From Escherichia coli (GTDB taxonomy: Bacteria; Pseudomonadota; Gammaproteobacteria; Enterobacterales; Enterobacteriaceae), in the NCBI GenBank assembly GCA_902500125.1, contig GCA_902500125.1_4132.1: DNA of 64,000 nt, one strand, 5' to 3'. The position numbers were made by a program, and so were the translations under genes. The notes below the pieces were generated by a model. That model did no database searches. It was not told the origin of the DNA and saw only the letters and a program-made list of their open reading frames with translations. Positions 27,817 to 44,022 of this stretch are shown piece by piece; the stretch's first letter is position 1; every line of letters begins with the position of its first letter.

Positions 27817-27850
27817 AAATCCCTCCTTTATTCATTATATCATATTTACC
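27817..27850 (-). promoter_or_regulatory. late-type promoter/SD (first cassette of the minus-strand block)
   Basis: Minus strand AAATATGATATAATGAATAAAGGAGGG before ATG 27816. Confidence 0.5.
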
Positions 27851-27865
27851 CCATAAACAAAACCC

Positions 27866-32704: not shown

Positions 32705-32762
32705 GATGTTTGTAGTCGGGTAGTTCTCAAGAATATCAGTACTGAATAATGAAAGAAAGCTA

Positions 32763-32790
32763 TTGACATTATGATTCAGTACTGTATAAT
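32763..32790 (+). promoter_or_regulatory. sigma70-like promoter with no downstream ORF
   Basis: TTGACA 32763-32768, 16 nt (CAGTACTG), TATAAT 32785-32790, GTTCTACATAGAGAG start region; no SD or ORF follows. Confidence 0.55.
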
Positions 32791-32976
32791 GTTCTACATA
32801 GAGAGATGAGTTGCCGCAAACAATTCATTCACTCTACCTCCTGTCGTGAGACAGTACTGAAAGGATAGTTCCTCCTATGGGTGGTACATCTTTTTATAAC
32901 CTCTTTTTTCGTAATATAAACAGTACTGATATTAACAGAATGGTGTCAGTACTGATTTTAATCTAAAGCATTATGC

Positions 32977-32995
32977 CACCAGCTTGTGCTGGTGG
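32977..32995. other. hairpin made of Chi and its complement
   Basis: CCACCAGC-ttgt-GCTGGTGG; + strand Chi at 32988-32995. Confidence 0.8.
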
Positions 32996-33192
32996 ATTCC
33001 CTCTAACAGTATTCAGTACTACATGATGGTCTTCATCCTCCTAGGGTAACATAGTGAGGGCTATGATGGCAGTACTGAATACTCCCTTTCAAAAGATAGA
33101 TCTATGGTATAGTACTGACGGATTTTGGGTGTAGTTACCCTGGGTGGATTTTGGACGTAGATATGTCTAGCCCTCCAGAAGTCTGGAAGTAA

Positions 33193-33328
33193 AGATGGCT
33201 ATCCATCTAGACGGCTAAACGGCTAGATTTCTGGATGGCTGGATGGCTAGATTTCTGGATGGCTGGATGGCTAGACGTTTGGACGGCTAAACGGCTAGAT
33301 GGTTACACGTCTGGAAGTATAGACGGCT
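33193..33328. repeat. iteron-like array of the octamer RRAYGGCT (10-11 copies), with 24-bp tandem unit x2
   Basis: AGATGGCT 33193, AGACGGCT 33209, AAACGGCT 33217, GGATGGCT 33233/33241/33257/33265, GGACGGCT 33281, AAACGGCT 33289, AGACGGCT 33321; flanked by GTCTGGAAGTA 33181 and 33309. Confidence 0.8.
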
Positions 33329-33489
33329 AAATCAAAATTTTATTTTGTTTTTTCCAATAGTTCCCCTACCGCGTGGGGATAGTTTCCCCGCAGTATCTGG
33401 AGTTAGATTTTTCTGAATCTGGAATCATTATCTTATAAACTGGGGGCAATGTCAACGGCCTGGACGGATATTTTTAAAAATTTTTTCAG

Positions 33490-33580
33490 TACTGAATTTT
33501 GGGCGTAACTATGCACCCGGTGGGCTTGAGTCTTTCTCGACTTGATGGAACTATTATACAGTACTGAAAAAATAAAGCAA
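33490..33580 (-). promoter_or_regulatory. U element: promoter + conserved transcribed core
   Basis: Minus strand TTGCTT (33580-33575), 16 nt, TATAAT (33558-33553), then ...ATCAAGTCGAGAAAGACTCAAGCCCACCGGGTGC (core 33525-33513). Confidence 0.45.
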
Positions 33581-33639
33581 TACCCTGGAAGCAAAAAAAT
33601 TTTAATTAATTTGCTTGCTATCCTGGGCCGGACTATGGT

Positions 33640-33702
33640 ACTATATTTCAGTACTGAGAAAGTGCGTTTGCCTGCTAGGGTGCGGGAGTGTATCCTTTTT
33701 TT
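33640..33702 (+). promoter_or_regulatory. U element, degenerate copy (core + T7)
   Basis: CTAGGGTGCGGGAGTGTATCC 33675-33695 followed by T7; no good promoter; converges on next element. Confidence 0.3.
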
Positions 33703-33711
33703 ATATCTTGA

Positions 33712-33796
33712 ATTTTGGGCGTAATTCCGCACCCCCTGGGGTTTCCGCTTTCTCGCGTCTATGTAGTAATTATACGCTTTTTCAGGATCAAGTCAA
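33712..33796 (-). promoter_or_regulatory. U element: promoter + conserved transcribed core
   Basis: Minus strand TTGACT (33796-33791), 16 nt, TATAAT (33774-33769), TACTACATAGACGCGAGAAAGCGGAAACCCCAGGGGGTGC. Confidence 0.45.
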
Positions 33797-33949
33797 TACC
33801 TAAAAACAAAATAATTGAAAATAATTTAACGCGTTTAAACGGCCCGTAAAGCCCTGGAATGATTAGAATGGTGCAAATGTATAGCTTAGGTGTATTAATG
33901 CGTTAGAATGCGTCTGAGGCCGTTTTACGGGGTATAGGGATGATTTAGT

Positions 33950-34115
33950 GGATTGATTCAGTACTGAATAATAGTACTCCTATATAGAAAGATAGTTCCC
34001 CTGGATTGATTCAGTACTGAATAATAGTACTCCTATATAGAAAGATAGTTCCCCTGGATGGTTGCAGTACTGAATGATAGTACTGAATAATAGTTCCCCT
34101 ATATAGAAAGAAAAC
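33950..34115. repeat. 53-bp tandem repeat, 2 exact copies + 1 diverged
   Basis: GGATTGATTCAGTACTGAATAATAGTACTCCTATATAGAAAGATAGTTCCCCT at 33950-34002 and 34003-34055; variant 34056-34115. Confidence 0.85.
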
Positions 34116-34142
34116 TATTTTAAAAGTATTTGTAGAAAGTAC

Positions 34143-34202
34143 TTGCAAACTAAGTTTAACGGCGTATAATGTTTTACATCGAGAGCGGGAACACTTCCCG
34201 CT
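34143..34202 (+). promoter_or_regulatory. PeSL-like cassette (early-type promoter + stem-loop)
   Basis: -35 TTGCAA 34143; -10 TATAAT 34165 + GTTTTACATC; hairpin 34184-34202; ATG 34226. Confidence 0.7.
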
Positions 34203-34225
34203 ACATATTACGAGAGATTAAAACG

Positions 34226-34588
34226 ATGGCGACTCAAATCACTAAAATTATTGCTAACCTGGTTAACTTTCGCGACGAGATGAAAGATCTTCCGGCAGAA
34301 ACGGTAAAAATTCACATTTCAGCTTATCGGGAACTTATTGCAATGTTACCGCTTAAGCGTGAACAATACGCCGCGACCGTGATGCTTGATGCGATGATCC
34401 ATAAGATGATCGCCAGTGATTTAACGATGGTTTATCAGTATATGGGCGAAAATTTCGCGGTGTATAGTAAACCAGTACCAGGAATGGAAAGTACAGAAGT
34501 ATTACACGGTTTAAATTTAAAACAAGATGCATGGGATAATATGCCTCGTTTCCTGGTATGGGCTGACAGTGGCAAGATTTACGAATAA
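34226..34588 (+). CDS. hypothetical protein (120 aa)
   Basis: ORF 34169 trimmed: its first 19 codons read through the -10 and hairpin; ATG 34226 follows GAGAGA. Confidence 0.65.
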   Translation: MATQITKIIANLVNFRDEMKDLPAETVKIHISAYRELIAMLPLKREQYAATVMLDAMIHKMIASDLTMVYQYMGENFAVYSKPVPGMESTEVLHGLNLKQDAWDNMPRFLVWADSGKIYE

Positions 34589-34602
34589 GTTTTAGAAAGT
34601 AC

Positions 34603-34661
34603 TTGCAAACTAAGTTTAAAAGCGTATAATGTTTTACATCAGGTGGGGAATAGTTCCCCAC
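34603..34661 (+). promoter_or_regulatory. PeSL-like cassette
   Basis: TTGCAA 34603; TATAAT 34625; hairpin GTGGGGAA-tag-TTCCCCAC 34643-34661; ATG 34682. Confidence 0.7.
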
Positions 34662-34681
34662 TATATAAGAGGATTAAAAAA

Positions 34682-34921
34682 ATGGCTAAATCAAAAATGT
34701 TCTTAGGTCACAAAAACAAAACTCATTGGAATGTAAGCCTTTGGATTAATAACGATGAGTCATTGTACCGGTTGGCCCAGGACTTTATTAACGATAGCAC
34801 TAATCGCAATGATGCGGCCCGTCATATGATGTTATTTTTAGAACAGACTGGACAAGATAAAACACCGGACGGATTCAAATATAGCACTACTGCGATCCGT
34901 GCGGCTATGGTTGGAATGTAA
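34682..34921 (+). CDS. hypothetical protein (79 aa), paralog of 36724..36963
   Basis: Trimmed from 34643; shared GHKNKTHWNVSLWINN..ESLYRLAQ...TPDGFKYSTTAIRAAMVGM. Confidence 0.7.
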   Translation: MAKSKMFLGHKNKTHWNVSLWINNDESLYRLAQDFINDSTNRNDAARHMMLFLEQTGQDKTPDGFKYSTTAIRAAMVGM

Positions 34922-35009
34922 TAGAATAGAATTTATTTAAAGTACTATTGCACGGGGATAGTACTTTATAATAGTGTTTTATTCATACACCAACGATAAG
35001 GGCAACAGC

Positions 35010-35276
35010 ATGAATATTAAGTATTTTGCGACGCGTGAACAAGCTCGGATCGCCGCTCGCCAGGACGGGGCAACGTTTAAAGATATGGGCGTACAATCGG
35101 AACGTGGTAAACGTTGGGCCATTGTAAAGCGTAGTACAGCCAGATCATTACAGTACTGGTTAGCGGCGTTAAAAAGTCCCGATAGTGTATCGCGTCGAGT
35201 GGTAGAAATAAAGCTCGACCGAAAGGGCAACCGCGTGACCGTGTACCGTACTAAAAAGATTGCAGTACTTGAATAA
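35010..35276 (+). CDS. hypothetical protein (88 aa), paralog of 46942..47337
   Basis: Trimmed from 34974; KYFATREQARIAARQDGATFKDMG...DRKGNRVTVY shared with 46942. Confidence 0.65.
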   Translation: MNIKYFATREQARIAARQDGATFKDMGVQSERGKRWAIVKRSTARSLQYWLAALKSPDSVSRRVVEIKLDRKGNRVTVYRTKKIAVLE

Positions 35277-35283
35277 AAAGTAC

Positions 35284-35342
35284 TTGCACCGTACTGATAA
35301 AAGCGTATAATGTTTTACATCGAGAGCGGGAACTCTTCCCGC
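35284..35342 (+). promoter_or_regulatory. PeSL-like cassette
   Basis: TTGCAC 35284; TATAAT 35306; hairpin 35326-35342; SD GGAG. Confidence 0.7.
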
Positions 35343-35363
35343 CTATAACCTGGAGTAATGAAA

Positions 35364-35594
35364 ATGACTAATATGTATATGACTGAAGTTAAAACCGTAA
35401 AAGATACTACCACGAATAAAACTACTTACTTACAGCGGATCTGTGGTGTATGGCAACGTATCAGCAAATCAAAGTACTTTAAATTAACATCATATGCAAA
35501 CCGTTCGGATTCATTCAGTACTGAAATAAAAGGTAATAAAGTACACCAATACGGCACTTATTATTATTACAGCCTGGACGCGATTGCAGTATAA
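35364..35594 (+). CDS. hypothetical protein (76 aa)
   Basis: ATG 35364 is 8 nt after GGAG (ATG 35358 is too close to the SD). Confidence 0.6.
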   Translation: MTNMYMTEVKTVKDTTTNKTTYLQRICGVWQRISKSKYFKLTSYANRSDSFSTEIKGNKVHQYGTYYYYSLDAIAV

Positions 35595-35624
35595 GCAGTT
35601 TACAAATCTTTACAATTGCCGGTA

Positions 35625-35704
35625 TTGACTTATTTTGTCAGTACTGGCATAATGTATTCATTGGCAGATAAGCCGTAGCCCATAGGGTGCGGGAGTGTAT
35701 CTAT
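35625..35704 (+). promoter_or_regulatory. U element: promoter + conserved transcribed core
   Basis: TTGACT 35625, 17 nt, CATAAT 35648; core GCCCATAGGGTGC 35678-35690; TGTATCTAT 35696-35704. Confidence 0.5.
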
Positions 35705-35734
35705 AGAAAAATTAGTTTAGTATAGTTACAATTG

Positions 35735-35797
35735 TGCACCCGGTGGGTTAGCTGTTGTCATGGGGTATATTATGCCAGTACTTGATAATGCTGTCAA
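35735..35797 (-). promoter_or_regulatory. U element, convergent partner of 35625-35704
   Basis: Minus strand TTGACA (35797-35792), 17 nt, CATAAT (35774-35769), core AACCCACCGGGTGC (35759-35746). Confidence 0.5.
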
Positions 35798-35843
35798 TAC
35801 TTTTTTTTAATATTCAGTACTGAAAACTATTTTTAAAAAGTAC

Positions 35844-35871
35844 TTGTAAACTATGTTTAAAGGCGTATAAT
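35844..35871 (+). promoter_or_regulatory. early-type promoter (upstream of tandem pair)
   Basis: AGTACTTGTAA: TTGTAA 35844; TATAAT 35866 + GTTTTACATC. Confidence 0.6.
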
Positions 35872-35876
35872 GTTTT

Positions 35877-35953
35877 ACATCAGGACGGGGAACGAAATAA
35901 GTAACTTCCCGTTAAGTAGCCCAGGAGTAAGGCACACGAAAAACTCCCCTGAT
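35877..35953 (+). ncRNA. conserved structured leader RNA (copy 1 of 3)
   Basis: Closing helix ATCAGG/CCTGAT; inner hairpin ACGGGGAA..TTCCCGT; motifs TAAGTAG, AGTAAG, ACGAAAAACT; near-identical at 46016-46090. Confidence 0.4.
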
Positions 35954-35961
35954 AAAATAGT

Positions 35962-35989
35962 TTGACAATAGAAAGTAAAAGCGTATAAT
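35962..35989 (+). promoter_or_regulatory. sigma70-like promoter (downstream of tandem pair)
   Basis: TTGACA 35962, 16 nt, TATAAT 35984; ATG 36022. Confidence 0.6.
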
Positions 35990-36021
35990 ACTTACATCAA
36001 CTACTGAATGAGGGTTACAAA

Positions 36022-36633
36022 ATGAAAACTATCACTACTACTACTTTTGTTATGGCTTTTTCTGAACTGAACGCAGAACAAAAAACGGCGGCTATCGAAC
36101 TGGTTCGGGATCGTGAGCGTTCATGTGAGGATAATTTCTTTGCTGAGGGCGTTATCGAGTACTATAAAGAAACAGTACTACCAGAATACGGCATAGATGA
36201 AGCTGAATTGCAATACAGTGGTTTTTGGTCGCAAGGTGACGGTGCATCAATCAGTACTAACCACGTTGACGCTGAGAAGTTTTTACGCAAGGTTAAGGCG
36301 TTAACGAAATATCGTTCAATCCGTCACCTGTTGAACGAGGATGATTTAGAAATGAGTGTAGAACGTTTCCAATCACGCTACGCACACGAAAACACGGTAG
36401 GCGGTTGCGTTGATACTCGCTACACTGATTTAACTGTAAAACAGGCGGCATTGGCTGAGGATCTGGAAAACTTACTGACTGATGCGATCCGTGAATTATC
36501 TCGTAAGTTGTACCGTGATTTAGAGAATGCATATGAGGATCAATTCACTACTGAAAACATTACTGCACTGATTGAGGGTAACGAATATCAATTCAATGTT
36601 ATTGATGGCGTAGTGGAATCAATCGAATATTAA
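36022..36633 (+). CDS. hypothetical protein (203 aa)
   Basis: ORF track; GAGGG upstream; acidic; motif GFWSQGDGAS; function not recognised. Confidence 0.7.
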   Translation: MKTITTTTFVMAFSELNAEQKTAAIELVRDRERSCEDNFFAEGVIEYYKETVLPEYGIDEAELQYSGFWSQGDGASISTNHVDAEKFLRKVKALTKYRSIRHLLNEDDLEMSVERFQSRYAHENTVGGCVDTRYTDLTVKQAALAEDLENLLTDAIRELSRKLYRDLENAYEDQFTTENITALIEGNEYQFNVIDGVVESIEY

Positions 36634-36644
36634 TTTAAAAAGTA

Positions 36645-36705
36645 CTTGTAAACTAAGTTTAAAAGCGTATAATACTTTACATCAAGGCGGGGAGTGGTTC
36701 CCCGC
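36645..36705 (+). promoter_or_regulatory. PeSL-like cassette
   Basis: TTGTAA 36645; TATAAT 36668; hairpin GCGGGGA-gtggt-TCCCCGC 36687-36705. Confidence 0.7.
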
Positions 36706-36723
36706 TCAAACGAGGATTTAAAA

Positions 36724-36963
36724 ATGGCTAGTACTAAAACTTACAACGGACACAAAAACAAAACTCATTGGAATGTAAGCCTTTGGATTAATAACGGTGA
36801 GTCATTGTATCGGCTTGCTCAAAGTTGCATCGCACAAAGTAGAACTAAAGATATTGCTGCGGAATGTATGTACCGCAGATTAAAAGCCAACGGTACTACT
36901 ACAACGCCGGACGGCTTTAAGTATAGCACTACTGCGATCCGTGCTGCAATGGTTGGAATGTAA
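36724..36963 (+). CDS. hypothetical protein (79 aa), paralog of 34682..34921
   Basis: Trimmed from 36694 to ATG 36724 after GAGGA. Confidence 0.7.
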   Translation: MASTKTYNGHKNKTHWNVSLWINNGESLYRLAQSCIAQSRTKDIAAECMYRRLKANGTTTTPDGFKYSTTAIRAAMVGM

Positions 36964-37020
36964 TATTCAGTACTGAGATAATGGCGGGTAATAGTTCCCG
37001 CCTTTACTGAGGGTTATCTA

Positions 37021-37281
37021 ATGAGTAAAGTAATTAGCTATACAGCACTAAGCAAGTCATTATCTATTAGCCAGTGCACCGATGGTTATTGGCTTTATGA
37101 TGAAACGCGTGGAATGAATTTAGCTATGCGTGCAAAAACTGCTGAGGCGGCGTATCTTGAGGCACTGGAATACTACCAGGAACGTTTAACGGAAGTAGAA
37201 GAAGATTATAAAAGCCTCAAAGCGAAAGTAGATCATTTCGTCGGTCAATTCATCGAGGAAGACGACGATAAACAATACTGA
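37021..37281 (+). CDS. hypothetical protein (86 aa)
   Basis: ORF track; GAGGG upstream; preceded by hairpin GGCGGG-taatagtt-CCCGCC. Confidence 0.6.
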   Translation: MSKVISYTALSKSLSISQCTDGYWLYDETRGMNLAMRAKTAEAAYLEALEYYQERLTEVEEDYKSLKAKVDHFVGQFIEEDDDKQY

Positions 37282-37291
37282 AAAAAAGTAC

Positions 37292-37350
37292 TTGCAATTA
37301 GTTTTCAGTACTGTATAATGGTTTACATCAAAGGGAGAAATGGTTCTCCC
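37292..37350 (+). promoter_or_regulatory. PeSL-like cassette
   Basis: TTGCAA 37292; TATAAT 37314; hairpin GGGAGAA-atgg-TTCTCCC 37333-37350. Confidence 0.7.
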
Positions 37351-37369
37351 TGGTAATGAGGAAAATAAA

Positions 37370-37591
37370 ATGGCTAATATCACTACTCTTTCCCAACTGG
37401 AAGCACTGGTGAAATCTATGCGGGAACATGCCGACAAAATCGGCGTACAAGATCCAGCCGTTTGCTTCTGCGACGAATTGAATGATGATACCCTGGTAAT
37501 AGCAGAAGTCCAGGACGTTTCTAACTATTCATCGCGTTACACTGGCGGCGTAGCAAATAAAGGCGACTTCTGTTTATACCTTACAAAATAA
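37370..37591 (+). CDS. hypothetical protein (73 aa)
   Basis: Trimmed from 37340 to ATG 37370 after GAGGAA. Confidence 0.65.
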   Translation: MANITTLSQLEALVKSMREHADKIGVQDPAVCFCDELNDDTLVIAEVQDVSNYSSRYTGGVANKGDFCLYLTK

Positions 37592-37595
37592 CAAC

Positions 37596-37626
37596 GCGGG
37601 GAGATAATAACTCCCCGTTACTTTTT
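37596..37626 (+). terminator. rho-independent terminator
   Basis: CGGGGAG-ataataa-CTCCCCG then TTACTTTTT. Confidence 0.6.
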
Positions 37627-37639
37627 CAGTACTGAATCA

Positions 37640-37726
37640 TTTAATAGACGGATCTCGGCACCCGGTGGGTTAGTGACTGTTTCGTCTTGATGTAGTAATT
37701 ATGCCAGTACTGGATGCACTTGTCAA
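37640..37726 (-). promoter_or_regulatory. U element: promoter + conserved transcribed core
   Basis: Minus strand TTGACA (37726-37721), 17 nt, CATAAT (37703-37698), TACTACATCAAGACGAAACAGTCACTAACCCACCGGGTGC (core 37671-37658). Confidence 0.5.
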
Positions 37727-37759
37727 CAACTATTTTTCAAATACTTTTTATTAAAATAC

Positions 37760-37814
37760 TTGCAATTAGTTTTTAAACGCGTATAATGTTTTGCATAGGG
37801 GGAGCGGTTCCCCC
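37760..37814 (+). promoter_or_regulatory. PeSL-like cassette
   Basis: TTGCAA 37760; TATAAT 37782; hairpin GGGGGA-gcggt-TCCCCC 37798-37814. Confidence 0.7.
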
Positions 37815-37835
37815 TGGTAACTAAGGAATAATAAA

Positions 37836-38072
37836 ATGCTTGAACAAATCAAATCAACGACTTCGAATGTAACGGGAACGGTAGCACACTTTACTAGTGA
37901 TGAATCGCGGGGCGTACCCTATTGTGCTGTACATGTAAACACTGATGGCAACTACTGGTTTACTGTTTACGGATCATATTCCTTTGGACGACCAGGGCAT
38001 CAAAAAATTCTGGATAAAGTACAGCCAACGGGTAAAAATATCACTGCTGAAATGTTTTATAAAAAATCATAA
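37836..38072 (+). CDS. hypothetical protein (78 aa)
   Basis: ORF track; TAAGGAA SD. Confidence 0.65.
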   Translation: MLEQIKSTTSNVTGTVAHFTSDESRGVPYCAVHVNTDGNYWFTVYGSYSFGRPGHQKILDKVQPTGKNITAEMFYKKS

Positions 38073-38077
38073 AGTAC

Positions 38078-38136
38078 TTGATAATAGTTTTTAGTACTGT
38101 ATAATATTTTACATCGCAAGGGGGAGCGGTTCCCCC
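38078..38136 (+). promoter_or_regulatory. PeSL-like cassette
   Basis: TTGATA 38078; TATAAT 38100; hairpin 38120-38136 identical to the one at 37798. Confidence 0.65.
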
Positions 38137-38156
38137 TGGTAACTAAGGATAATCAA

Positions 38157-38456
38157 ATGAAAATTGCAATCATCGCCCTGGCTTTATCTGTTTCCTCTTT
38201 CGCTGTTAATGCGTCATTAGATGTAAGTAGTGAAAAATTCATTCAGTGCACTGTTGCAATGACCGATGAAAGTACTGGCGAGATTGTATTAAAGGATCTG
38301 GAGATTCAGCCGGAAGCATTTAAAAACGGCCCGTTCCATGAAGAAGACGAAAACGGTAGCACGACAATTTATTATGATGCCAGTACTAAACGCGGTTCGG
38401 TCACTGTAATGGATACTGAGAAAGTAACGCATACCGGCGTTATTAATTGCCGTTGA
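38157..38456 (+). CDS. small secreted protein, signal-peptide/Cys-pair family
   Basis: Signal peptide MKIAIIALALSVSSFAVNA; Cys pair IQCTVA ... VINCR. Confidence 0.7.
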   Translation: MKIAIIALALSVSSFAVNASLDVSSEKFIQCTVAMTDESTGEIVLKDLEIQPEAFKNGPFHEEDENGSTTIYYDASTKRGSVTVMDTEKVTHTGVINCR

Positions 38457-38477
38457 TAGATACTACGGGGTAACATC

Positions 38478-38708
38478 ATGACTAAGCGAATTGTTTTACT
38501 TAACGAAAGCAGTACTACACAACTACTTAACGCCGTGCATTATGATATTGAAACGAGCGTTAATCTTATCAGTACTGTAGTACTGTTGGACACTGGAAAG
38601 GTCGCCAATGATAAAGCGATTGCAGGTATATTAACGGATCTTGAGCCTGGTAGCAGTGCACCAATAACGTTAAATGGTAAAGTGTTTAATATTTTACTCA
38701 CTGATTAA
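38478..38708 (+). CDS. hypothetical protein (76 aa)
   Basis: ORF track; GGGG upstream. Confidence 0.6.
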   Translation: MTKRIVLLNESSTTQLLNAVHYDIETSVNLISTVVLLDTGKVANDKAIAGILTDLEPGSSAPITLNGKVFNILLTD

Positions 38709-38714
38709 GTACAT

Positions 38715-38737
38715 AGCCCACCTGGTGGGCTTTTTTG
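38715..38737 (+). terminator. rho-independent terminator
   Basis: AGCCCACCTGGTGGGCT + T6. Confidence 0.75.
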
Positions 38738-38790
38738 TTTTTGTAGTATCGTAGTACTGAGATACTTTGAAAATAGTTTTAAGAAAGTAG

Positions 38791-38818
38791 TTGACATTAC
38801 CGCAGAAAAGCGTAGAAT
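38791..38818 (+). promoter_or_regulatory. sigma70-like promoter
   Basis: TTGACA 38791, 16 nt, TAGAAT 38813. Confidence 0.55.
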
Positions 38819-38823
38819 GTATT

Positions 38824-38898
38824 ACATCAAGACGGGGAGCACTAAGTAGACCGCCAGTAAGTCGAACGAAAAACTGGACACGTCGAGAAAACTTTGAT
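38824..38898 (+). ncRNA. structured leader RNA (diverged copy 3)
   Basis: ACATCAAGACGGGGAG...; closing helix ATCAAG/CTTTGAT; shares TAAGTAG, AGTAAG, ACGAAAAACT with 35877 and 46016. Confidence 0.3.
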
Positions 38899-38941
38899 AC
38901 ACTAATAAACGTAAACTAAACTTTAATTGAGGATTTATAAA

Positions 38942-39424
38942 ATGGCTAATGTAAAATCATTCATCAAAGCACTGGTAGCAAATGAAACTAACGTCGCGGC
39001 TGAGATCCTGGCTGAACTGGATAACGATACCATGAAAGCGGTACGCAATAATTTTAACATCGCGTACAGTACTGCGAAAGAACTACAAGCAAATAAAGCG
39101 GCAGAGATTGAAGCAGCGAAGGCGGCCCGTGAAGCAGAACTACAAGCAACAATTGAAAGTATCCAGGCGGCAGTAGTTGGGCTGGATCTGGAAGTAGTTA
39201 CCGAGATGGCACAAAAAGCCCTGGCGGTTAAGTACGGGGAAGATAAGCCGGAATCTAAGCCTAAAAAATGGATTCAAGAACGTGTAGCGGTAGTACTTGA
39301 TAACGGGGAAGAATATCTGATTCCGGTGCGTGGTAACTGCATTGCGGTAGTACTGGATGCTATCAAAGAAAGCGGATTGACTCGCGAGGAATGGATCGAA
39401 GCTCATCGCAAAGTTGAAGCATAA
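38942..39424 (+). CDS. hypothetical protein (160 aa), Ala/Glu-rich helical centre
   Basis: Trimmed from 38927 to ATG 38942 after GAGGA. Confidence 0.65.
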   Translation: MANVKSFIKALVANETNVAAEILAELDNDTMKAVRNNFNIAYSTAKELQANKAAEIEAAKAAREAELQATIESIQAAVVGLDLEVVTEMAQKALAVKYGEDKPESKPKKWIQERVAVVLDNGEEYLIPVRGNCIAVVLDAIKESGLTREEWIEAHRKVEA

Positions 39425-39445
39425 CAATTAAAGTACTGAATCATT

Positions 39446-39472
39446 AGCCCACTTATACAGTGGGCTTTTTTG
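39446..39472 (+). terminator. rho-independent terminator
   Basis: AGCCCACT-tatac-AGTGGGCT + T6. Confidence 0.75.
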
Positions 39473-39552
39473 TGTTTATCGTTTACCAGGCCACCAGCAC
39501 CGCCTAGAAACGATTCTAACGTATTAAACTGTTTATCTGATGCATTGCCCTA

Positions 39553-39560
39553 GCTGGTGG
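39553..39560 (+). other. intergenic Chi octamer
   Basis: GCTGGTGG; its complement CCACCAGC lies at 39491-39498. Confidence 0.8.
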
Positions 39561-39625
39561 CGTTAAAGTCGTTAGAATGCGATTGAGTGCGTTTAAAGTA
39601 TTTTGCAAAAAGTAATAAAAAGTAC

Positions 39626-39687
39626 TTGCACGATTAAGAGATTAGCGTATAATGTTTTACATCGAGAGGGGGAAACGGTTCTCCTTC
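39626..39687 (+). promoter_or_regulatory. PeSL-like cassette
   Basis: TTGCAC 39626; TATAAT 39648; imperfect hairpin 39666-39687. Confidence 0.65.
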
Positions 39688-39708
39688 CAAATCAAAGGAA
39701 TCAAAACA

Positions 39709-39936
39709 ATGGCTATCGTAATCGCTTATGTAACTGGTACTACTGGCACTTCTTCTACTGTTGCTGTAATTACCAACAAGAAAGGTGCGGAATTACATTC
39801 TGCAATGGATACCTGGGCGGTAAATGAGTTCGGTCAGTGGGCAAGTGTAGCATATGTTGAAACCTATCAAGTGCCAACCATTAGCTTAACGGATCTCGGT
39901 GTAGATCGTATCCTTTGCCTGGATGAATTAAATTAA
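39709..39936 (+). CDS. hypothetical protein (75 aa)
   Basis: Trimmed from 39652 to ATG 39709 after AAGGAA. Confidence 0.65.
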   Translation: MAIVIAYVTGTTGTSSTVAVITNKKGAELHSAMDTWAVNEFGQWASVAYVETYQVPTISLTDLGVDRILCLDELN

Positions 39937-39944
39937 AAAAGTAC

Positions 39945-40005
39945 TTGCAAAGTAAGTTGGATAAAGTATAATACATTACATCAAGGGGAGAAAATGGTTC
40001 TCCCC
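39945..40005 (+). promoter_or_regulatory. PeSL-like cassette
   Basis: TTGCAA 39945; TATAAT 39967; hairpin GGGGAGAA..TTCTCCCC 39985-40005. Confidence 0.7.
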
Positions 40006-40023
40006 ACTAAGAGGAAACTAAAA

Positions 40024-40167
40024 ATGAAAACTTGTCAATGTGGTAAAAAATCTATTACTGGTTTGAAACGGGGCGTTGCTCTTTGTCAGTATCACTATAA
40101 CGCTCAGGTATGGGGTAAAGAGTGGGCCGACCAGGTGGAAGCAGTAAAGAAAGCAAAAAGTAAGTAA
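40024..40167 (+). CDS. small Cys-containing protein (47 aa)
   Basis: Not in ORF track; own cassette + AGAGGAAA SD; MKTCQCGKK...ALCQYHYNAQ (CxC...CxxH). Confidence 0.55.
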   Translation: MKTCQCGKKSITGLKRGVALCQYHYNAQVWGKEWADQVEAVKKAKSK

Positions 40168-40186
40168 AATTATTATCACAGTACTA

Positions 40187-40215
40187 TTGACATAGATTGA
40201 TAGTACTGGCATAAT
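40187..40215 (+). promoter_or_regulatory. class-2 promoter (AGTACT-flanked)
   Basis: AGTACTATTGACA: TTGACA 40187, 17 nt, CATAAT 40210; about 85-bp unit repeated at 40445-40542. Confidence 0.65.
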
Positions 40216-40248
40216 AGATTTTATCAAGACAACTAAGAGGAAACAATA

Positions 40249-40461
40249 ATGGCTATCATCACAAAAATCAAAGTAAACAAATCACTGGTTAAGCTGGAAG
40301 AAGTGAAAGAAGGTTATAAAGTATCGTGGTGCGGCATGTATCGGATTTTTACAGATGTTGACGATGCAATCAATTACTACACTGACACGGTAAAAAACTT
40401 TGTTCGTGCTGATGTGGTTATGGCAGTGGCAACACACAAAGCATCGAAAGAAAGTAAGTAA
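40249..40461 (+). CDS. hypothetical protein (70 aa)
   Basis: ORF track; AGAGGAAA SD. Confidence 0.65.
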   Translation: MAIITKIKVNKSLVKLEEVKEGYKVSWCGMYRIFTDVDDAINYYTDTVKNFVRADVVMAVATHKASKESK

Positions 40462-40480
40462 AAATATTATCACAGTACTA

Positions 40481-40509
40481 TTGACATAGTTTGATAGTAC
40501 TGGCATAAT
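40481..40509 (+). promoter_or_regulatory. class-2 promoter (repeat of 40187)
   Basis: TTGACA 40481, CATAAT 40504. Confidence 0.65.
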
Positions 40510-40542
40510 AGATTTTATCAAGACAACTAAGAGGAAATTAAA

Positions 40543-40887
40543 ATGGCTAATATCAACACTATCGCAAAACAAAATATCAACCTGTCTTCTGTTGAAGTTG
40601 TACATATTGCCGCTCGGCGTTGGTTCCAGGCTTCATATGGTAACACTTATTTCTCTTTAAGTGTAGACGTAGAAATTGATGGTAATTTTATTGAAGTAGT
40701 AAACGTGCCGTTCCAATATGGATACGGGGATCACTTTGACACTGTAGCAATGGAAGAATTTAGCAAGGTTATTAATATGGAAGATAAAGAGTTTTTACGC
40801 GGTTCTTATCTTTCCCGTTTTTGCCGTGACAATAATATCACTGTTTACAGTTCGGTAACTGATGTTAAACGCAAAAAAGATCTTTAA
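40543..40887 (+). CDS. hypothetical protein (114 aa), paralog of 46523..46846
   Basis: Shared NTY..S, F.YGYG and C-terminal DVKRKKD(L/M). Confidence 0.7.
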   Translation: MANINTIAKQNINLSSVEVVHIAARRWFQASYGNTYFSLSVDVEIDGNFIEVVNVPFQYGYGDHFDTVAMEEFSKVINMEDKEFLRGSYLSRFCRDNNITVYSSVTDVKRKKDL

Positions 40888-40967
40888 TTAGCTTTACTTT
40901 ATGCAGATACTTTGATATAGTGTCTGCATAGGGGAAAGAAATTAAATTAACTTAAGAGGATCGTATA

Positions 40968-41237
40968 ATGAAAAATATCAGTACTTTAATCGATGCAGGT
41001 ACACATGTTCGGCGGTCTATGGTTGCAACCAGTACTACAAAACAAGTAGCGAGCGGTTATCTTGTATTTGTGCACGATGGTAAACTCCTGGAACGTTCAA
41101 TCAATTTTGATGTTAAAAACAATTGCCGTTTTATTATCTTTCGCCGTGAACAATATAAGATCGACATTCCAGCGAAGCCCATTAGCGGTGCGTACAATGT
41201 GCAATCATTGTTTGAGCGTCAACCATACACCTATTAA
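40968..41237 (+). CDS. hypothetical protein (89 aa)
   Basis: ORF track; AAGAGGA SD. Confidence 0.6.
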   Translation: MKNISTLIDAGTHVRRSMVATSTTKQVASGYLVFVHDGKLLERSINFDVKNNCRFIIFRREQYKIDIPAKPISGAYNVQSLFERQPYTY

Positions 41238-41288
41238 TCAAAACATCGTTAGCGGTCGATTCAGGCCGCTTATATTGGGGATTATACC

Positions 41289-41561
41289 ATGAACGTTAAT
41301 CAAGTACTGAATGAGATCGAAAGCATCATTAAACCGATGAAGCGTACTGATGCTATGTTAACACCGGAAGAATGCCGCCTTTATGAGCGTTACAGCGTCG
41401 AACAAGTCCAGGCAATGGCTATGGCTACCCCAGCCGTTAAACCGCCTGAGAATGCGTTACAGGACGTTACAGGGGATTATATCATCAATCCAGTACTAGG
41501 GAAGATGGCTGCAATCACCGAAGATCAACAAGACTACTTAAGCCAGTACTTAAAAGGTTAA
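41289..41561 (+). CDS. hypothetical protein (90 aa)
   Basis: ORF track; GGGGA upstream. Confidence 0.6.
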   Translation: MNVNQVLNEIESIIKPMKRTDAMLTPEECRLYERYSVEQVQAMAMATPAVKPPENALQDVTGDYIINPVLGKMAAITEDQQDYLSQYLKG

Positions 41562-41566
41562 TTAAT

Positions 41567-41776
41567 ATGCTTACTGTACAGGATAAGATCGACATCTTAA
41601 AGGTTAATATGTATGTGATTGATGCCGTACCTGGTAAAGTATTTGCATACGATGACACTACTGTAAGCGATTTCTACTATAGCCAGGCCGTGGGGGATCT
41701 TTCTGTACAGTCGGTTATTGAAAACGTAGTTAATGCAGCGTATGAGCATTTACTTTCAAATAGTACTTGCAATTAG
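41567..41776 (+). CDS. hypothetical protein (69 aa)
   Basis: ORF track; last codons ..NSTCN* are encoded by the next cassette's AATAGTACTTGCAATTAG. Confidence 0.6.
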   Translation: MLTVQDKIDILKVNMYVIDAVPGKVFAYDDTTVSDFYYSQAVGDLSVQSVIENVVNAAYEHLLSNSTCN

Positions 41777-41826
41777 TTTTTAAACGCGTATAATGTTTTA
41801 CATGAAGGGGAGAAATGATTCTCCCC
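41767..41826 (+). promoter_or_regulatory. PeSL-like cassette
   Basis: TTGCAA 41767; TATAAT 41789; hairpin GGGGAGAA-atga-TTCTCCCC 41807-41826. Confidence 0.7.
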
Positions 41827-41845
41827 ACTAATTAAGGAATATGAA

Positions 41846-41992
41846 ATGAAAGCATCAAAAAAGAGTAATACTAAGAAAGCACGTTCACCTTTCGCTGGGG
41901 TATTCCCTTTACGTTTCGTTGATGAAGTAGTTTCCTACCCGCCGGGCCTTACTCCTGAGATGGTAGAAAGTTTGCGTAAATCTAAAAAATAG
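41846..41992 (+). CDS. small basic protein (48 aa)
   Basis: Not in ORF track; own cassette + AAGGAA SD; MKASKKSNTKKARSPFAG...; stop TAG lies in next cassette. Confidence 0.5.
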   Translation: MKASKKSNTKKARSPFAGVFPLRFVDEVVSYPPGLTPEMVESLRKSKK

Positions 41993-41995
41993 TAC

Positions 41996-42055
41996 TTGCA
42001 ATTAGTTTTTAGTACTGTATAATAGTTTACATGAAGGGGAGAAATGATTCTCCCC
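41996..42055 (+). promoter_or_regulatory. PeSL-like cassette
   Basis: TTGCAA 41996; TATAAT 42018; hairpin 42036-42055. Confidence 0.7.
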
Positions 42056-42073
42056 AATAACAGGAGAAACAAA

Positions 42074-42226
42074 ATGAAACAATACAACGCTCGGTTTGAT
42101 GTTACTATCGGTAACGGCAAAGGTCAATTCTCTTTCAGTACTCGCAAAAGTTATACAGAAAACTTCCTGCGTAATTGTGCACTGACCGCCGCTCAAATTA
42201 AACATTATTTTCAGGCTAAAAAATGA
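42074..42226 (+). CDS. small protein (50 aa)
   Basis: Trimmed from 42044 to ATG 42074 after AGGAGAAA. Confidence 0.55.
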   Translation: MKQYNARFDVTIGNGKGQFSFSTRKSYTENFLRNCALTAAQIKHYFQAKK

Positions 42227-42312
42227 AATCATTAGCTTATTACAGTTCAGCGGTGATCGGTGCATTGATCGCGGCATTGTTAGTAACCTATCTATTCTTT
42301 ATGGTGATTTAA
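42223..42312 (+). CDS. hydrophobic micro-protein (29 aa)
   Basis: ATGA-coupled to previous gene; MKSLAYYSSAVIGALIAALLVTYLFFMVI (one TM). Confidence 0.4.
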   Translation: MKSLAYYSSAVIGALIAALLVTYLFFMVI

Positions 42313-42453
42313 ATGAATCCTAACGGTTTAATTTACAGTACTCCTAAAACGAAAGCAGATAAAGCGAAAGCACGTAAAGCGAAAGTAAAGGAGTACATTA
42401 AGCAAGGCATGACGCGAAAGGCCGCACTACTCAGAGTAAAGGCTGAAAAATAA
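42313..42453 (+). CDS. small basic protein (46 aa)
   Basis: ATG directly after previous TAA; Lys-rich KADKAKARKAKVKEY. Confidence 0.4.
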   Translation: MNPNGLIYSTPKTKADKAKARKAKVKEYIKQGMTRKAALLRVKAEK

Positions 42454-42460
42454 TTGAAAA

Positions 42461-42548
42461 AAGGGTTGACTCCGGTCAGTCCCTTTGCTATTATATATAC
42501 ATACCAGCGATACACTGGCGGCCCATAGGGTGCACAAATGTATCTATT
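42461..42548 (+). promoter_or_regulatory. composite cassette: terminator hairpin carrying -35, plus U element core
   Basis: GGGTTGAC-tccg-GTCAGTCCC; TTGACT 42466, 17 nt, TATTAT 42489; core GCCCATAGGGTGC 42521-42533; TGTATCTATT 42539-42548. Confidence 0.55.
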
Positions 42549-42588
42549 ATATAAGTATTGAGTACTGAAAACTATTTTTAAAAAGTAC

Positions 42589-42648
42589 TTGCAAACTATC
42601 TCAATAAGCGTATAATGTTTTACATCGAAAGGGGAAACGGTTTCCCCT
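42589..42648 (+). promoter_or_regulatory. PeSL-like cassette
   Basis: TTGCAA 42589; TATAAT 42611; hairpin AGGGGAAA-cgg-TTTCCCCT 42630-42648. Confidence 0.7.
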
Positions 42649-42667
42649 GGTAATAAGGAAACAAATC

Positions 42668-43009
42668 ATGACTATCTCAATTGCTCAATCTAACTTTGAA
42701 AATGAAATCATCGCCCAGGCACTGCGTTTAAATGATGGTCGGGCCGAAATTAATTACGGTTTCAATTCAGGCGGTTGTGAAAAATATCAGTACTTTGTAA
42801 CGGCTGATGGCGGTGTCCTGGGTATCAATACAGTTATTGTAAACATCCAAAAAATTAATTTCAATGATCCAGACGATAGCCAGTTTTACATCACGGGCGT
42901 AGACGTGAACTATGAGGATGACTCACTAACTGATGACTACACTGGTGAAACGTTAGAAAGTGCATACTGTGAAGATGATTATCAGTCCGGTCCAGAAGAT
43001 TTCGAATAA
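42668..43009 (+). CDS. hypothetical acidic protein (113 aa)
   Basis: ORF track; TAAGGAAA SD. Confidence 0.65.
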   Translation: MTISIAQSNFENEIIAQALRLNDGRAEINYGFNSGGCEKYQYFVTADGGVLGINTVIVNIQKINFNDPDDSQFYITGVDVNYEDDSLTDDYTGETLESAYCEDDYQSGPEDFE

Positions 43010-43023
43010 TATAAAAAAATAGT

Positions 43024-43083
43024 TTGACAATAGATTATAGTACTGTATAATAGTTTACATCAAGGGGAGAAAAACTTCTCCCC
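43024..43083 (+). promoter_or_regulatory. PeSL-like cassette
   Basis: TTGACA 43024; TATAAT 43046; hairpin 43064-43083. Confidence 0.7.
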
Positions 43084-43105
43084 ACTAACAGAGAGAGAAA
43101 ACAAA

Positions 43106-43318
43106 ATGGCTAATATCTGCACTGTACTGAAAAATGCAAAACAAGTTTTATTTTCTGATCACGATCATTTAAACAAGGATATTACTGGCGTTCGGAATAT
43201 CAAAGATGTAAAAAGTGTTATGGGTATCTATTGCAATATGAAACGTGTTGGAACGTTCGGCGACAAAGTACTATACCAGGCAGGGGATTACAATTTTACA
43301 CTGACTATCATTAACTAA
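43106..43318 (+). CDS. hypothetical protein (70 aa)
   Basis: ORF track; GAGAGAGAAA SD region. Confidence 0.65.
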   Translation: MANICTVLKNAKQVLFSDHDHLNKDITGVRNIKDVKSVMGIYCNMKRVGTFGDKVLYQAGDYNFTLTIIN

Positions 43319-43337
43319 AAATATATTACCAGTACTA

Positions 43338-43365
43338 TTGACATAGTTTGATAGTACTGTATAAT
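43338..43365 (+). promoter_or_regulatory. class-2 promoter
   Basis: AGTACTATTGACA: TTGACA 43338, 16 nt, TATAAT 43360. Confidence 0.65.
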
Positions 43366-43409
43366 AAGTTTTATAAACAGTAGTTAACTTAACCTAAGAG
43401 AGAAATAAA

Positions 43410-43553
43410 ATGATCGCACTGGATTCATTCATCGACGCAGTACTGGCAAAAACTGGCGAGGATCTGACCGCAGAACAATACGCGATGATCGAGCAATGTC
43501 AGCAAGACGGTAAATCGGTGAAAGATACTGTTAAGATTATCCGCAAGATGTAA
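43410..43553 (+). CDS. small protein (47 aa)
   Basis: Not in ORF track; AAGAGAGAAA SD; MIALDSFIDAVLAKTGEDL... Confidence 0.5.
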   Translation: MIALDSFIDAVLAKTGEDLTAEQYAMIEQCQQDGKSVKDTVKIIRKM

Positions 43554-43560
43554 TATTATA

Positions 43561-43587
43561 GCCCACTGGTCAACGCTGGTGGGCTTT
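43561..43587 (+). terminator. terminator hairpin containing Chi
   Basis: GCCCAC...GTGGGC + TTT; 3' arm includes GCTGGTGG 43575-43582. Confidence 0.5.
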
Positions 43588-43658
43588 AATCCTTTACCCT
43601 ATACAATGCCAGTACTAAACCGTTTATCTCGTTAGAATGCGTTACAGGACGTTTGACA

Positions 43659-43856
43659 ATGATTAGCATGAAATCAGTACAAAAACAAATAGAAACATTA
43701 TCAAAAATTAAACGTAAACAGTACTCGTTAGAATATACAATCAATGGTAACTATCATCTAATGAAAGAGAATAATTTTATTGTCATTGATGAATCATTGC
43801 AAATCATTAGTATAGTACTGAAAGCATTAATCAATGACAGAAAAAAATTAAAATAA
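43659..43856 (+). CDS. hypothetical protein (65 aa)
   Basis: ORF-track TTG 43653 trimmed to ATG 43659; AT-richer than neighbours; weak SD. Confidence 0.45.
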   Translation: MISMKSVQKQIETLSKIKRKQYSLEYTINGNYHLMKENNFIVIDESLQIISIVLKALINDRKKLK

Positions 43857-43860
43857 TCTA

Positions 43861-43944
43861 TTGACAATATCATCCAGTACTGGCATAATACTTACATCAA
43901 GACGAGAACGTCACTAACCCATAGGGTGCACAAATGTAACTATA
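43861..43944 (+). promoter_or_regulatory. U element: promoter + conserved transcribed core
   Basis: TTGACA 43861, 17 nt, CATAAT 43884; ACTTACATCAAGACGAGAACGTCACTAACCCATAGGGTGC (core to 43930). Confidence 0.5.
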
Positions 43945-43951
43945 TAATATC

Positions 43952-44022
43952 GATCAATAAATGATCAAAAAAGTACTGGATCAATTTAACATAAGGAGTA
44001 TAATTCTGATCAATTCTTGATC
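43952..44022. repeat. cluster of five GATCAA(A/T) motifs
   Basis: GATC at 43952, 43963, 43979, 44008, 44019, each followed by AA; non-coding. Confidence 0.8.

Follow-up and report, generated by a model that had tools for sequence, protein, structure and literature searches.

The 64,000-nucleotide (nt) stretch of DNA considered here (referred to as the window; contig GCA_902500125.1_4132.1 of assembly GCA_902500125.1, deposited as Escherichia coli) carries a short leader segment that recurs, almost unchanged, behind early promoters located in front of unrelated genes. This arrangement raises the question of whether the leader is a functional RNA or a chance resemblance and, in the former case, what it might do in the first transcripts. 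Comparison with other sequences demonstrates that three elements of the window represent one conserved RNA module, structured and non-coding, that starts at the predicted +1 of strong sigma-70 early promoters, and it is practically certain that they belong to a genuine structured RNA family that includes bacteriophage T7. An earlier sequence-only reading of the window had described a local family of three leaders; the family is indeed real and structured, but it is widespread, with T7 among its members, rather than a local trio.

Three copies of the leader motif

Exactly three copies of the motif are present in the 64-kb window, all on the plus strand (35879–35953, 46018–46090, and 38826–38898, denoted below as copies 1, 2, and 3, respectively). 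The covariance model R1 of the core, built from 31 sequences spanning all lineages, detects copy 1 at 35911–35951 (50.2 bits, E 1.6e-11), copy 2 at 46048–46088 (53.1 bits, E 2.7e-12), and copy 3 at 38841–38881 (51.8 bits, E 5.8e-12), with the next-best match in the 64 kb, on both strands, at E = 0.74. This gap between E values of ~1e-11 and 0.74 bears out the claim that the element is not a product of chance. The near-identity of 35877–35953 and 46016–46090, also claimed on the basis of the sequence, is evident as well: the segments starting with ACATCAGGACGGGGAACGAAA at 35877 and 46016 are the sole two matches in the window with up to three mismatches, where zero would be expected, and ACGAAAAACT occurs three times compared to 0.3 occurrences expected by chance.

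The core of the motif consists of a closing helix whose sequence is free, the unpaired and invariant UAAGUAG-N4, and a hairpin with a 5-bp stem (hairpin 2) that carries the conserved loop UAAGNCNNACGAAAA. The spacer between UAAGUAG and this hairpin is 4–6 nt long across the family and 4 nt long in the window copies, whereas the loop of hairpin 2 comprises 14–17 nt in the family and 14 nt in the window copies. The parts of the three copies, all on the plus strand, are as follows.

35879–35884 and 35948–35953, plus strand: closing helix of copy 1, AUCAGG/CCUGAU (from the sequence and the minimum-free-energy fold)
35885–35891 and 35906–35912, plus strand: inserted hairpin of copy 1, ACGGGGA/UUCCCGU (from the sequence and the minimum-free-energy fold)
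35913–35919, plus strand: junction UAAGUAG of copy 1
35924–35928, 35929–35942, and 35943–35947, plus strand: hairpin 2 of copy 1, with GGAGU, the loop AAGGCACACGAAAA, and ACUCC
46018–46023 and 46085–46090, plus strand: closing helix of copy 2, AUCAGG/CCUGAU (from the sequence and the fold)
46024–46029 and 46044–46049, plus strand: inserted hairpin of copy 2, ACGGGG/CCCCGU
46050–46056, plus strand: junction UAAGUAG of copy 2
46061–46065, 46066–46079, and 46080–46084, plus strand: hairpin 2 of copy 2, with GGAGU, the loop, and ACUCC (the 14-nt loop of copies 1 and 2 is AAGNCANACGAAAA)
38826–38831 and 38892–38898, plus strand: outer helix of copy 3, AUCAAG/CUUUGAU (one G-U pair or a bulge)
38831–38834 and 38881–38884, plus strand: inner helix of copy 3, GACG/CGUC
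38843–38849, plus strand: junction UAAGUAG of copy 3
38854–38858, 38859–38872, and 38873–38877, plus strand: hairpin 2 of copy 3, with CCAGU, the loop AAGUCGAACGAAAA, and ACUGG

The elements named in the sequence-only reading, namely ATCAGG/CCTGAT, ACGGGG.../...CCCGT, TAAGTAG, AGTAAG, and ACGAAAAACT, are all found as it had them, with AGTAAG and ACGAAAAACT representing the two sides of the hairpin 2 loop. Copy 3, which is diverged and has no inserted hairpin, retains the motifs as well, and its AUCAAG/CUUUGAU strands can pair with one G-U or bulge and are complemented by GACG/CGUC. The anatomy proposed in that reading stands in part: the closing helix is confirmed, but hairpin 2 had been overlooked, and the ACGGGG/CCCCGT hairpin is lineage-specific, is the counterpart of the 5' hairpin of the generic early cassettes described below, and lies outside the conserved core. 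The stem of hairpin 2 differs between copies 1 and 2 on the one hand and copy 3 on the other by two G-C to C-G swaps, and within the window this is the part of the motif that covaries best. Hairpin 2 and the closing helix meet directly at their 3' strands in the window copies, making it possible for the two helices to stack. The folding energies are modestly unusual for copy 1 (z of -2.4) and copy 2 (z of -3.3) and ordinary for copy 3 (z of -0.18); the case for the motif rests on comparative evidence and not on folding energy.

Covariation and fold of the family

About 50 distinct versions of the motif were collected from scans of IMG/VR and by targeted retrieval, and the covariation check carried out with these homologues, as recommended in the sequence-only reading, shows that both helices covary. 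For the 23 distinct sequences of the T7-like set, in which a three-helix structure with a pseudoknot was tested, 91% of the cells are paired, compared to 15–35% when the partner columns are slid, and changes on both sides are seen in 10 of the 15 pairs. None of 500 shuffles reached the observed value on four of the five measures, and two of the 500 did so on the fifth. In the pseudoknot/closing helix, five of the six pairs show changes on both sides, with up to four pair types per position, and in hairpin 2, aligned for 31 sequences from all lineages, four of the six pairs do so. The G-C to G-U changes in hairpin 2 fit only a reading on the sense strand. RNAalifold independently yields the closing helix and hairpin 2, in the nested topology found in the window.

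At least 12 distinct closing-helix sequences are present in the family, and all of them are complementary. Those of T7-like phages include GUCAA/UUGAC, GAUUAG/CUAAUC, GUCGGU/ACCGAC, GUCAC/GUGAC, GUCAUC/GAUGAC, and GUCAGA/UCUGAU. In these phages, the 5' strand of the closing helix is at the same time the loop of a small covarying hairpin with the stems CCGG/CCGG, CCAC/GUGG, CCAG/CUGG, or CGGG/CCCG, and this placement creates an H-type pseudoknot. The window copies have no pseudoknot, since their 5' strand is located at the very 5' end of the transcript and the fold is nested; as modeled, they are a nested topological variant of the same motif. In T7 itself, the 3' strand of the closing helix coincides with the -35 hexamer of promoter A2, yet several lineages differ at this point and keep the pairing. 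Such pairing without a -35 hexamer in the 3' strand speaks against an explanation at the level of DNA alone.

In the versions from jumbo phages and Vequintavirinae, a closing helix of differing sequence is always present. Taken singly, these helices are modestly better than shuffled flanks, and their Fisher combination over seven independent lineages, worked out by hand, gives p ~6e-4. Across four phage groups, ~20 unpaired nucleotides are invariant.

Distribution of the motif

The window matches the 121Q/PBECO4-like jumbo coliphages (genus Asteriusvirus) at 91–97% identity in BLAST, and by this measure its source is an Asteriusvirus-like phage of the 121Q/PBECO4 type. Between 22 phage records, the 77-nt element shows no difference at all (100% identity), and among them are phages in which the surrounding 501 nt are only ~91–92% identical, such as PBECO4 and EC.P1. 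Such perfect identity of the element amid diverged flanks indicates that it is under purifying selection. Further carriers among Rak2-like jumbo phages are Munch, Hallingskeid, and an uncultured 366-kb phage.

The layout in which the element is placed between an upstream promoter (P1) and a downstream one (P2) is also found in the ~145-kb myoviruses of Stephanstirmvirinae (outra, muut) and Vequintavirinae (A73, LTH01), and the element is matched by BLAST in EmilieFrey, W70, A7_1, and A5-4. Phage muut (locus L003, 2440–2700) has the whole module in common with the window (45976–46435), including P1, the motif, P2, and the gene for a 91-amino acid (aa) protein, and is, as far as this likeness goes, a case of a promoter–leader–gene cassette moving between unrelated phage families. 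Promoter-plus-leader modules thus appear to move between very different phage families.

The link to T7-like phages is provided by copy 3, the core of which is 91% identical in BLAST to positions 553–587 of the T7-like Yersinia phage phiA1122. In T7, the core occupies positions 549–590, between the annotated promoters A1 (+1 = 498) and A2 (+1 = 626) and 550 bp from the left genome end, and scores 61.8 bits with model R1, compared to 50–53 bits for the window copies. With the A1–A2 leader of phiA1122 as the query, 583 phage records are matched by BLAST, and those inspected are mostly Studiervirinae; as part of this query is the A2 promoter, the motif itself is established in many, not in every one, of the 583 records. 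The hosts of these phages are Escherichia, Klebsiella, Salmonella, Yersinia, Enterobacter, Citrobacter, Cronobacter, and Erwinia. Among the true distinct instances of the motif, ~47 of 51 have a promoter-like site within 110 nt downstream.

A pattern scan of 185,579 genomes of bacterial and archaeal species returned nine loci, two of them true, both on tiny contigs (1.1 and 2.7 kb) that are taken to be phage contamination. The T7 A1–A2 leader has no match in 5,426 E. coli genomes at the sensitivity of BLAST, and a metagenome scan gave mostly chance matches, together with further copies from 121Q-like phages. As judged from these scans, the family is confined to phages and does not extend to bacterial chromosomes.

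Promoters, genes, and early cassettes around the copies

A pattern scan for promoters and terminators covered copies 1 and 3, whereas the hexamers flanking copy 2 were read from the sequence. The features surrounding the copies are listed below.

35844–35871, plus strand: P1 of copy 1, TTGTAA-16-TATAAT, 10/12 in the scan, repeat family D1
35962–35989, plus strand: P2 of copy 1, TTGACA-16-TATAAT, 12/12 in the scan
36022–36633, plus strand: open reading frame (ORF) after copy 1, 203 aa, phrog_5162
45983–46010, plus strand: P1 of copy 2, TTGCAT (45983–45988), 16-nt spacer, TATAAT (46005–46010), read from the sequence, repeat family D1
46099–46126, plus strand: P2 of copy 2, TTGACA (46099–46104), 16-nt spacer, TATAAT (46121–46126), read from the sequence
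46160–46435, plus strand: ORF after copy 2, 91 aa, phrog_14947
38715–38731: intrinsic-terminator-like hairpin just upstream of P1 of copy 3, from the scan
38791–38818, plus strand: P1 of copy 3, TTGACA-16-TAGAAT, 11/12 in the scan
38894–38922, plus strand: P2-like site of copy 3, TTGATA-17-TAAACT, weak, 9/12 in the scan
38942–39424, plus strand: ORF after copy 3, 160 aa, phrog_27871
39446–39466: terminator-like hairpin after the ORF of copy 3, from the scan

Copies 1 and 2 are thus placed between P1 and a TTGACA/TATAAT P2, as had been claimed, with the scan supporting this for copy 1 and the reading of the sequence for copy 2. The second promoter is of consensus strength for these two copies only, and the weak P2-like site of copy 3 overlaps the 3' strand of its outer helix. 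The transcription start is predicted, by analogy with T7 A1 (GATACT-7 nt-AUCGAGAGGG), to be A35879 for copy 1, A46018 for copy 2, and A38826 for copy 3, and with this placement the closing helix begins at the predicted +1. The genes at 36022 and 46160 are unrelated, in agreement with the sequence-only reading, as they belong to different PHROG families. The three downstream proteins represent three different PHROG families of unknown function and have no Pfam match, so that the gene context offers no functional clue.

The copies are part of a larger array. At least 23 repeated early-promoter cassettes, assigned to repeat families D1–D7, are located on the plus strand at 32745–52263 of the window. 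Their generic layout includes AAAGTACTTGCAA…TATAAT-GTTTTAC-ATCGAGAGGGG, a G-rich hairpin GGGGAA…TTCCCC, a Shine–Dalgarno sequence/ribosome-binding site with ATG, and a small ORF, and their predicted transcript start AUCGAGAGGG is identical to the start of T7 promoter A1. Only three of these cassettes bear the leader motif. In relatives with determined genome ends, a direct terminal repeat of 20–21.5 kb covers the cassette region, and the element is found 3.6–3.7 kb from the genome end: in vB_Ec-M-J the terminal repeat spans 1–21,525 with the element at 3.7 kb, and in fENko-Kae01 it spans 1–19,736 with the motif core at 3.6 kb.

Several other repeated features were observed in the same DNA. A second repeat family is found at 42444–42538, 45832–45926, 48839–48933, and 51592–51686, as well as at 3260, 7264, 9110, and 14022. 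It carries a promoter-like TTGACT-17-TATTAT buried in the hairpin GGGATTGACTCCGGTCAGTCCC and followed by the conserved TAGCCCACCGGGTGCA, and may be either another class of promoter or a terminator and promoter in one; P1 of copy 2 is preceded, at a distance of ~110 nt, by one of its copies. On the minus strand, strong promoter-like sites that read leftward (TTGACA-17-CATAAT, extended -10 TG) are present at 35797–35769 and 37726–37698, oriented away from the rightward cassettes, and one of them is just upstream of P1 of copy 1. Two paralogous gene arrays were also seen, one at 19718–27859 on the minus strand, in which gene starts with …AAAAGGTAACAT…CCTCC are repeated with a spacing of ~1.2 kb, and the other at 53902–58143 on the plus strand, with a repeated coding motif …TTAGGNACAAACTATCAAGA….

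Comparison with known elements

The core of the T7 A1–A2 leader (UAAGUAG-ACAG-CCUG(A)UAAGUCNNACGAAAAACAGG, T7 549–590) is homologous to the window motif, is found on the same strand, and takes the same place between tandem sigma-70 promoters. In T7 and T7-like phages, the motif starts ~50 nt after +1, behind a separate hairpin, whereas in the window the closing helix begins at the predicted +1. The topology differs accordingly, being an H-type pseudoknot in T7-like phages and nested in the window, where copies 1 and 2 also include the inserted hairpin. The T7 reference record has no annotated feature at the position of the motif. The A2–A3 spacers of T7 (locus L021, 660–715) and phiA1122 (locus L020, 655–700) contain a degenerate half-copy of the hairpin 2 loop, which in T7 consists of the loop plus the promoter, CACAUAAGGUGAAACAAAACGG-UUGACAACAUGAAGUAAAC; this suggests that A3 may have arisen by duplication of the A2 region.

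The backbone of the window cassettes, although not the motif itself, fits the description of the promoter–early stem-loop (PeSL) cassettes of T4-type phages, in which a promoter and an early stem-loop precede small ORFan genes in a plastic region (PMC2839356); the common features are a strong sigma-70 promoter, a GGGG…CCCC stem-loop, and small ORFans. PeSLs are defined by promoter/terminator activity and recombination, and not by a conserved RNA with covarying helices. By analogy, PeSL-like cassettes would offer a route for the transfer of a motif together with its gene, as seen in muut.

With the nut and rrn signals, the motif has in common an A-rich hairpin loop (…CGAAAAA…) in an early leader, and its tandem promoters resemble rrn P1–P2. 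T7-like leaders also carry an rrn-type boxA (CGCTCTTTAACAA in T7; rrn consensus TGCTCTTTAACAA) downstream of the motif, at a distance of ~220 nt in T7 and 11 nt in locus L042. However, the loop of boxB comprises 5 nt and is GNRA-like, compared to 14–17 nt in the motif, and a site of the nut/rrn type, in which boxA (CGCTCTTTA or TGCTCTTTAACAA) stands beside a boxB with a 5-nt loop, was not found at the window copies. The only exact boxA match in the window, at 2899–2911 on the minus strand, is far from the three copies; it agrees with the rrn consensus over 13 nt (~0.002 expected by chance), is antisense to a plus-strand ORF starting near 2741, and is probably a chance occurrence unrelated to them.

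Other identities were considered and rejected. No Rfam family matches the window copies or the T7 version: Rfam 15 at gathering thresholds has no match in the whole window, a permissive search around copy 1 yields chance-level matches only (E 0.19–8.5, far under the gathering scores), and none is found at the motif in the loci of T7, phiA1122, L053, L056, and muut. With covariation present and no ordinary Rfam family matched, neither outcome named as refuting the sequence-only reading occurred. ARAGORN finds no tRNA or tmRNA genes in the window. An intrinsic terminator or attenuator is rejected, as there is no G+C-rich hairpin followed by a U run at copies 1 and 3, and in the scan no terminator-like site is present inside or directly after these copies, the nearest being at 38715–38731 and 39446–39466. 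A small leader ORF is rejected because copies 1 and 2 contain none of the start codons ATG, GTG, or TTG; copy 3 has a single TTG, in its putative -35 element. Mimicry of the host is rejected as well, since the core model matches nothing in the E. coli rrn leader or the 5' region of 16S.

Two short resemblances to host ribosomal sequences were noted in the E. coli rrnA locus (L073, 350–420 and 682–705 region). In 16S, CAAGUCGAACGGUAACAGG resembles the phage UAAGUCGAACGAAAAACAGG, and in the rrn P1–P2 spacer, ACGCCGCCGGGUCAGCGGGG resembles the Kayfunavirus ACGCCGGGUCAUCCCGG, with its GGGUCA able to pair with the P2 -35 region. The former (AAGUCGAACG…AACAGG) is judged to be chance or unproven, as the matching tetraloop positions vary among homologues, and the latter, ACGCCG(CC)GGGUCA, is judged in the same way. 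A search of the literature by sequence and by topic, in which the older work on T7 was thinly covered, returned incidental listings of the T7 sequence only, and as far as this search shows the motif is undescribed, although an earlier mention is possible.

Possible function of the leader RNA

The motif lies within the first ~50–130 nt of the first early transcripts and, where the genome ends are known, near one of them. It is carried by four unrelated phage groups, all of which infect enterobacteria and have early promoters of the kind used by sigma-70 of the host. From the common host type, the promoters, and the early position, we infer recognition by a conserved component of the host. The folded leader would be recognized by this component and would act in cis, on the very RNA polymerase by which it was transcribed, so that early transcription of the first-entering DNA would become resistant to pausing and termination, as with the put RNAs of phage HK022. 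The put RNA is a cis-acting RNA of ~70 nt that makes the host RNA polymerase resist pausing and termination and needs no phage protein. Both put and the motif are short multi-helix RNAs with conserved unpaired bases, found after phage early promoters, but put consists of two simple stem-loops, whereas the motif combines a closing helix or pseudoknot with a large-loop hairpin. Action of the motif in cis, on its own early transcript or the complex that transcribes it, is in our judgment as likely as not, and the narrower proposal of a put-like mechanism of anti-pausing or antitermination, made by analogy, is the one that we prefer, but it is tentative and has a minor share of our confidence. A block by dCas9 at A1 delayed T7 lysis more than a block at A2 or A3, although this comparison is confounded (PMC11863960).

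Several observations weigh against a put-like action in cis. The complete genome of HK022 has no match to R1 at E <= 1 even with the filters off, and no boxA is located near the window copies. Behind each copy in the jumbo phage comes one short gene and then a further promoter, so that antitermination would hardly seem to be needed. T7 can grow with any one of A1, A2, and A3 alone, and the motif is thus probably dispensable in laboratory hosts. The transcripts that start at the downstream promoter are made without the motif, which would fit at least as well a trans-acting product of which only some amount is required, and the extreme conservation of the ~20 unpaired nucleotides would also be consistent with an aptamer that binds a ligand or a protein and serves another purpose.

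By burying the triphosphorylated 5' end, the motif might act as a barrier to 5'-end-dependent entry or scanning by RNase E and prolong the life of the first early mRNAs, in which case it would be an elaborate form of the 5' stem-loop of every early cassette. The closing helix does start at the predicted +1 in the copies from the window, jumbo phages, and Vequintavirinae (AUCAGG, AUCAAG, or AUCAA), all of the at least 23 generic cassettes have a G-rich hairpin just after +1, and the T7 A1 RNA also begins with a hairpin. A simple hairpin would suffice for this purpose, though, leaving the ~20 unpaired nucleotides invariant in four groups without explanation; in T7-like phages another hairpin comes first and the motif follows ~50 nt into the transcript, and the P2 transcripts lack the motif, so that we consider 5'-end protection unlikely. 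Those same P2 transcripts are what would be expected if P1 served mainly to make much of this RNA within the first seconds of infection, with P2 independently securing the expression of the downstream gene, and if this abundant early RNA acted in trans as a decoy or sponge that titrates or inhibits a host nuclease, an RNA chaperone, or an immune sensor. The P1–motif–P2 layout, which leaves many mRNAs without the motif, is nearly universal; three copies inside the terminal repeat would presumably amount to six per packaged genome; and the motif is restricted to phages and situated in the first-entering DNA, in T7-like phages beside an anti-restriction gene. Transcripts from T7 A1 continue past A2 and A3, and cutting by RNase III at R0.3 releases the leaders as separate RNAs, which we count in favor of action in trans. 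On the other side, the scan, which covered copies 1 and 3, shows no terminator or evident processing site behind the motif, T7-like phages have a single copy, and we know of no candidate target; action in trans is accordingly also held to be improbable, to a comparable extent.

Other explanations give the fold no role, or a sensing or catalytic one. If the element worked as DNA, it would be an UP-like or factor-binding region upstream of P2, or a recombination-prone, PeSL-like promoter cassette hitch-hiking from phage to phage with a functionless fold. In accord with this, ACGAAAAAC is located at ~-42 to -50 of T7 A2 and ~-53 to -61 of P2 in the window, where the A-tracts of UP elements act; the 3' strand of the T7 closing helix is the A2 -35 hexamer; the T7 A2–A3 spacer has a degenerate partial copy of the loop; and the region is rich in repeated promoter cassettes similar to the PeSLs of T4-type phages (PMC2839356). 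Against it, compensatory changes hold both helices together in at least 12 versions, including those in which the strand is not a -35 element (CUAAUC, ACCGAC, GAUGAC, GUGAC, UCUGAU), the G-U pairs are sensible only on the transcribed sense strand, the distance from ACGAAAAAC to the next -35 varies from ~5 to more than 50 nt, and the motif is kept in a few lineages with no detectable downstream promoter (loci L064 and L068; in L042 the promoter is weak at best). A DNA-level role is held to be very unlikely. Less likely still is that the early leader houses a sensor of the riboswitch type or a ribozyme that cleaves itself: the compact pseudoknotted fold with invariant nucleotides in its junctions and loops is typical of aptamers and small ribozymes, but there is no expression platform in the form of a terminator or a sequestered ribosome site coupled to the fold, over 300 nt separate the T7 motif from the first gene, and no riboswitch or ribozyme model matches even at permissive thresholds. 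Mechanisms outside those considered here are, taken together, also unlikely to provide the answer.

We can speculate, with reserve, that the motif represents a new class of RNA aptamer in the first transcripts of phages, which would bind directly to a conserved host machine and reprogram it, or neutralize a nuclease or an immune sensor, before any phage protein has been made; this is possible, but we would not expect it on balance. Its carriers are T7-like phages, rV5-like and phAPEC8-like myoviruses, and Rak2-like jumbo phages of Enterobacterales. The machine targeted by such an aptamer could be RNA polymerase or the Nus factors, in which case a put-like function could have arisen independently.

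Implications for phage biology

T7 is among the most thoroughly studied phages, and its A1–A2–A3 region serves worldwide as a model promoter array. A recent paper reportedly calls this region simply a "non-coding internalisation signal". Conserved leader RNAs encoded in cis are a known kind of element in the early transcripts of phages, whereas this fold and its distribution are new. That a pseudoknotted RNA with ~20 invariant unpaired nucleotides is conserved in many T7-like phages, and also in large myoviruses of three unrelated groups, implies that selection maintains a function in the very first transcripts of infection. If true, the aptamer reading would give a function to the long-unexplained non-coding A1–A2 leader of T7, and the motif could reveal a case in which the RNA of a phage, and not a protein, controls host transcription or RNA decay, or evades host defence.

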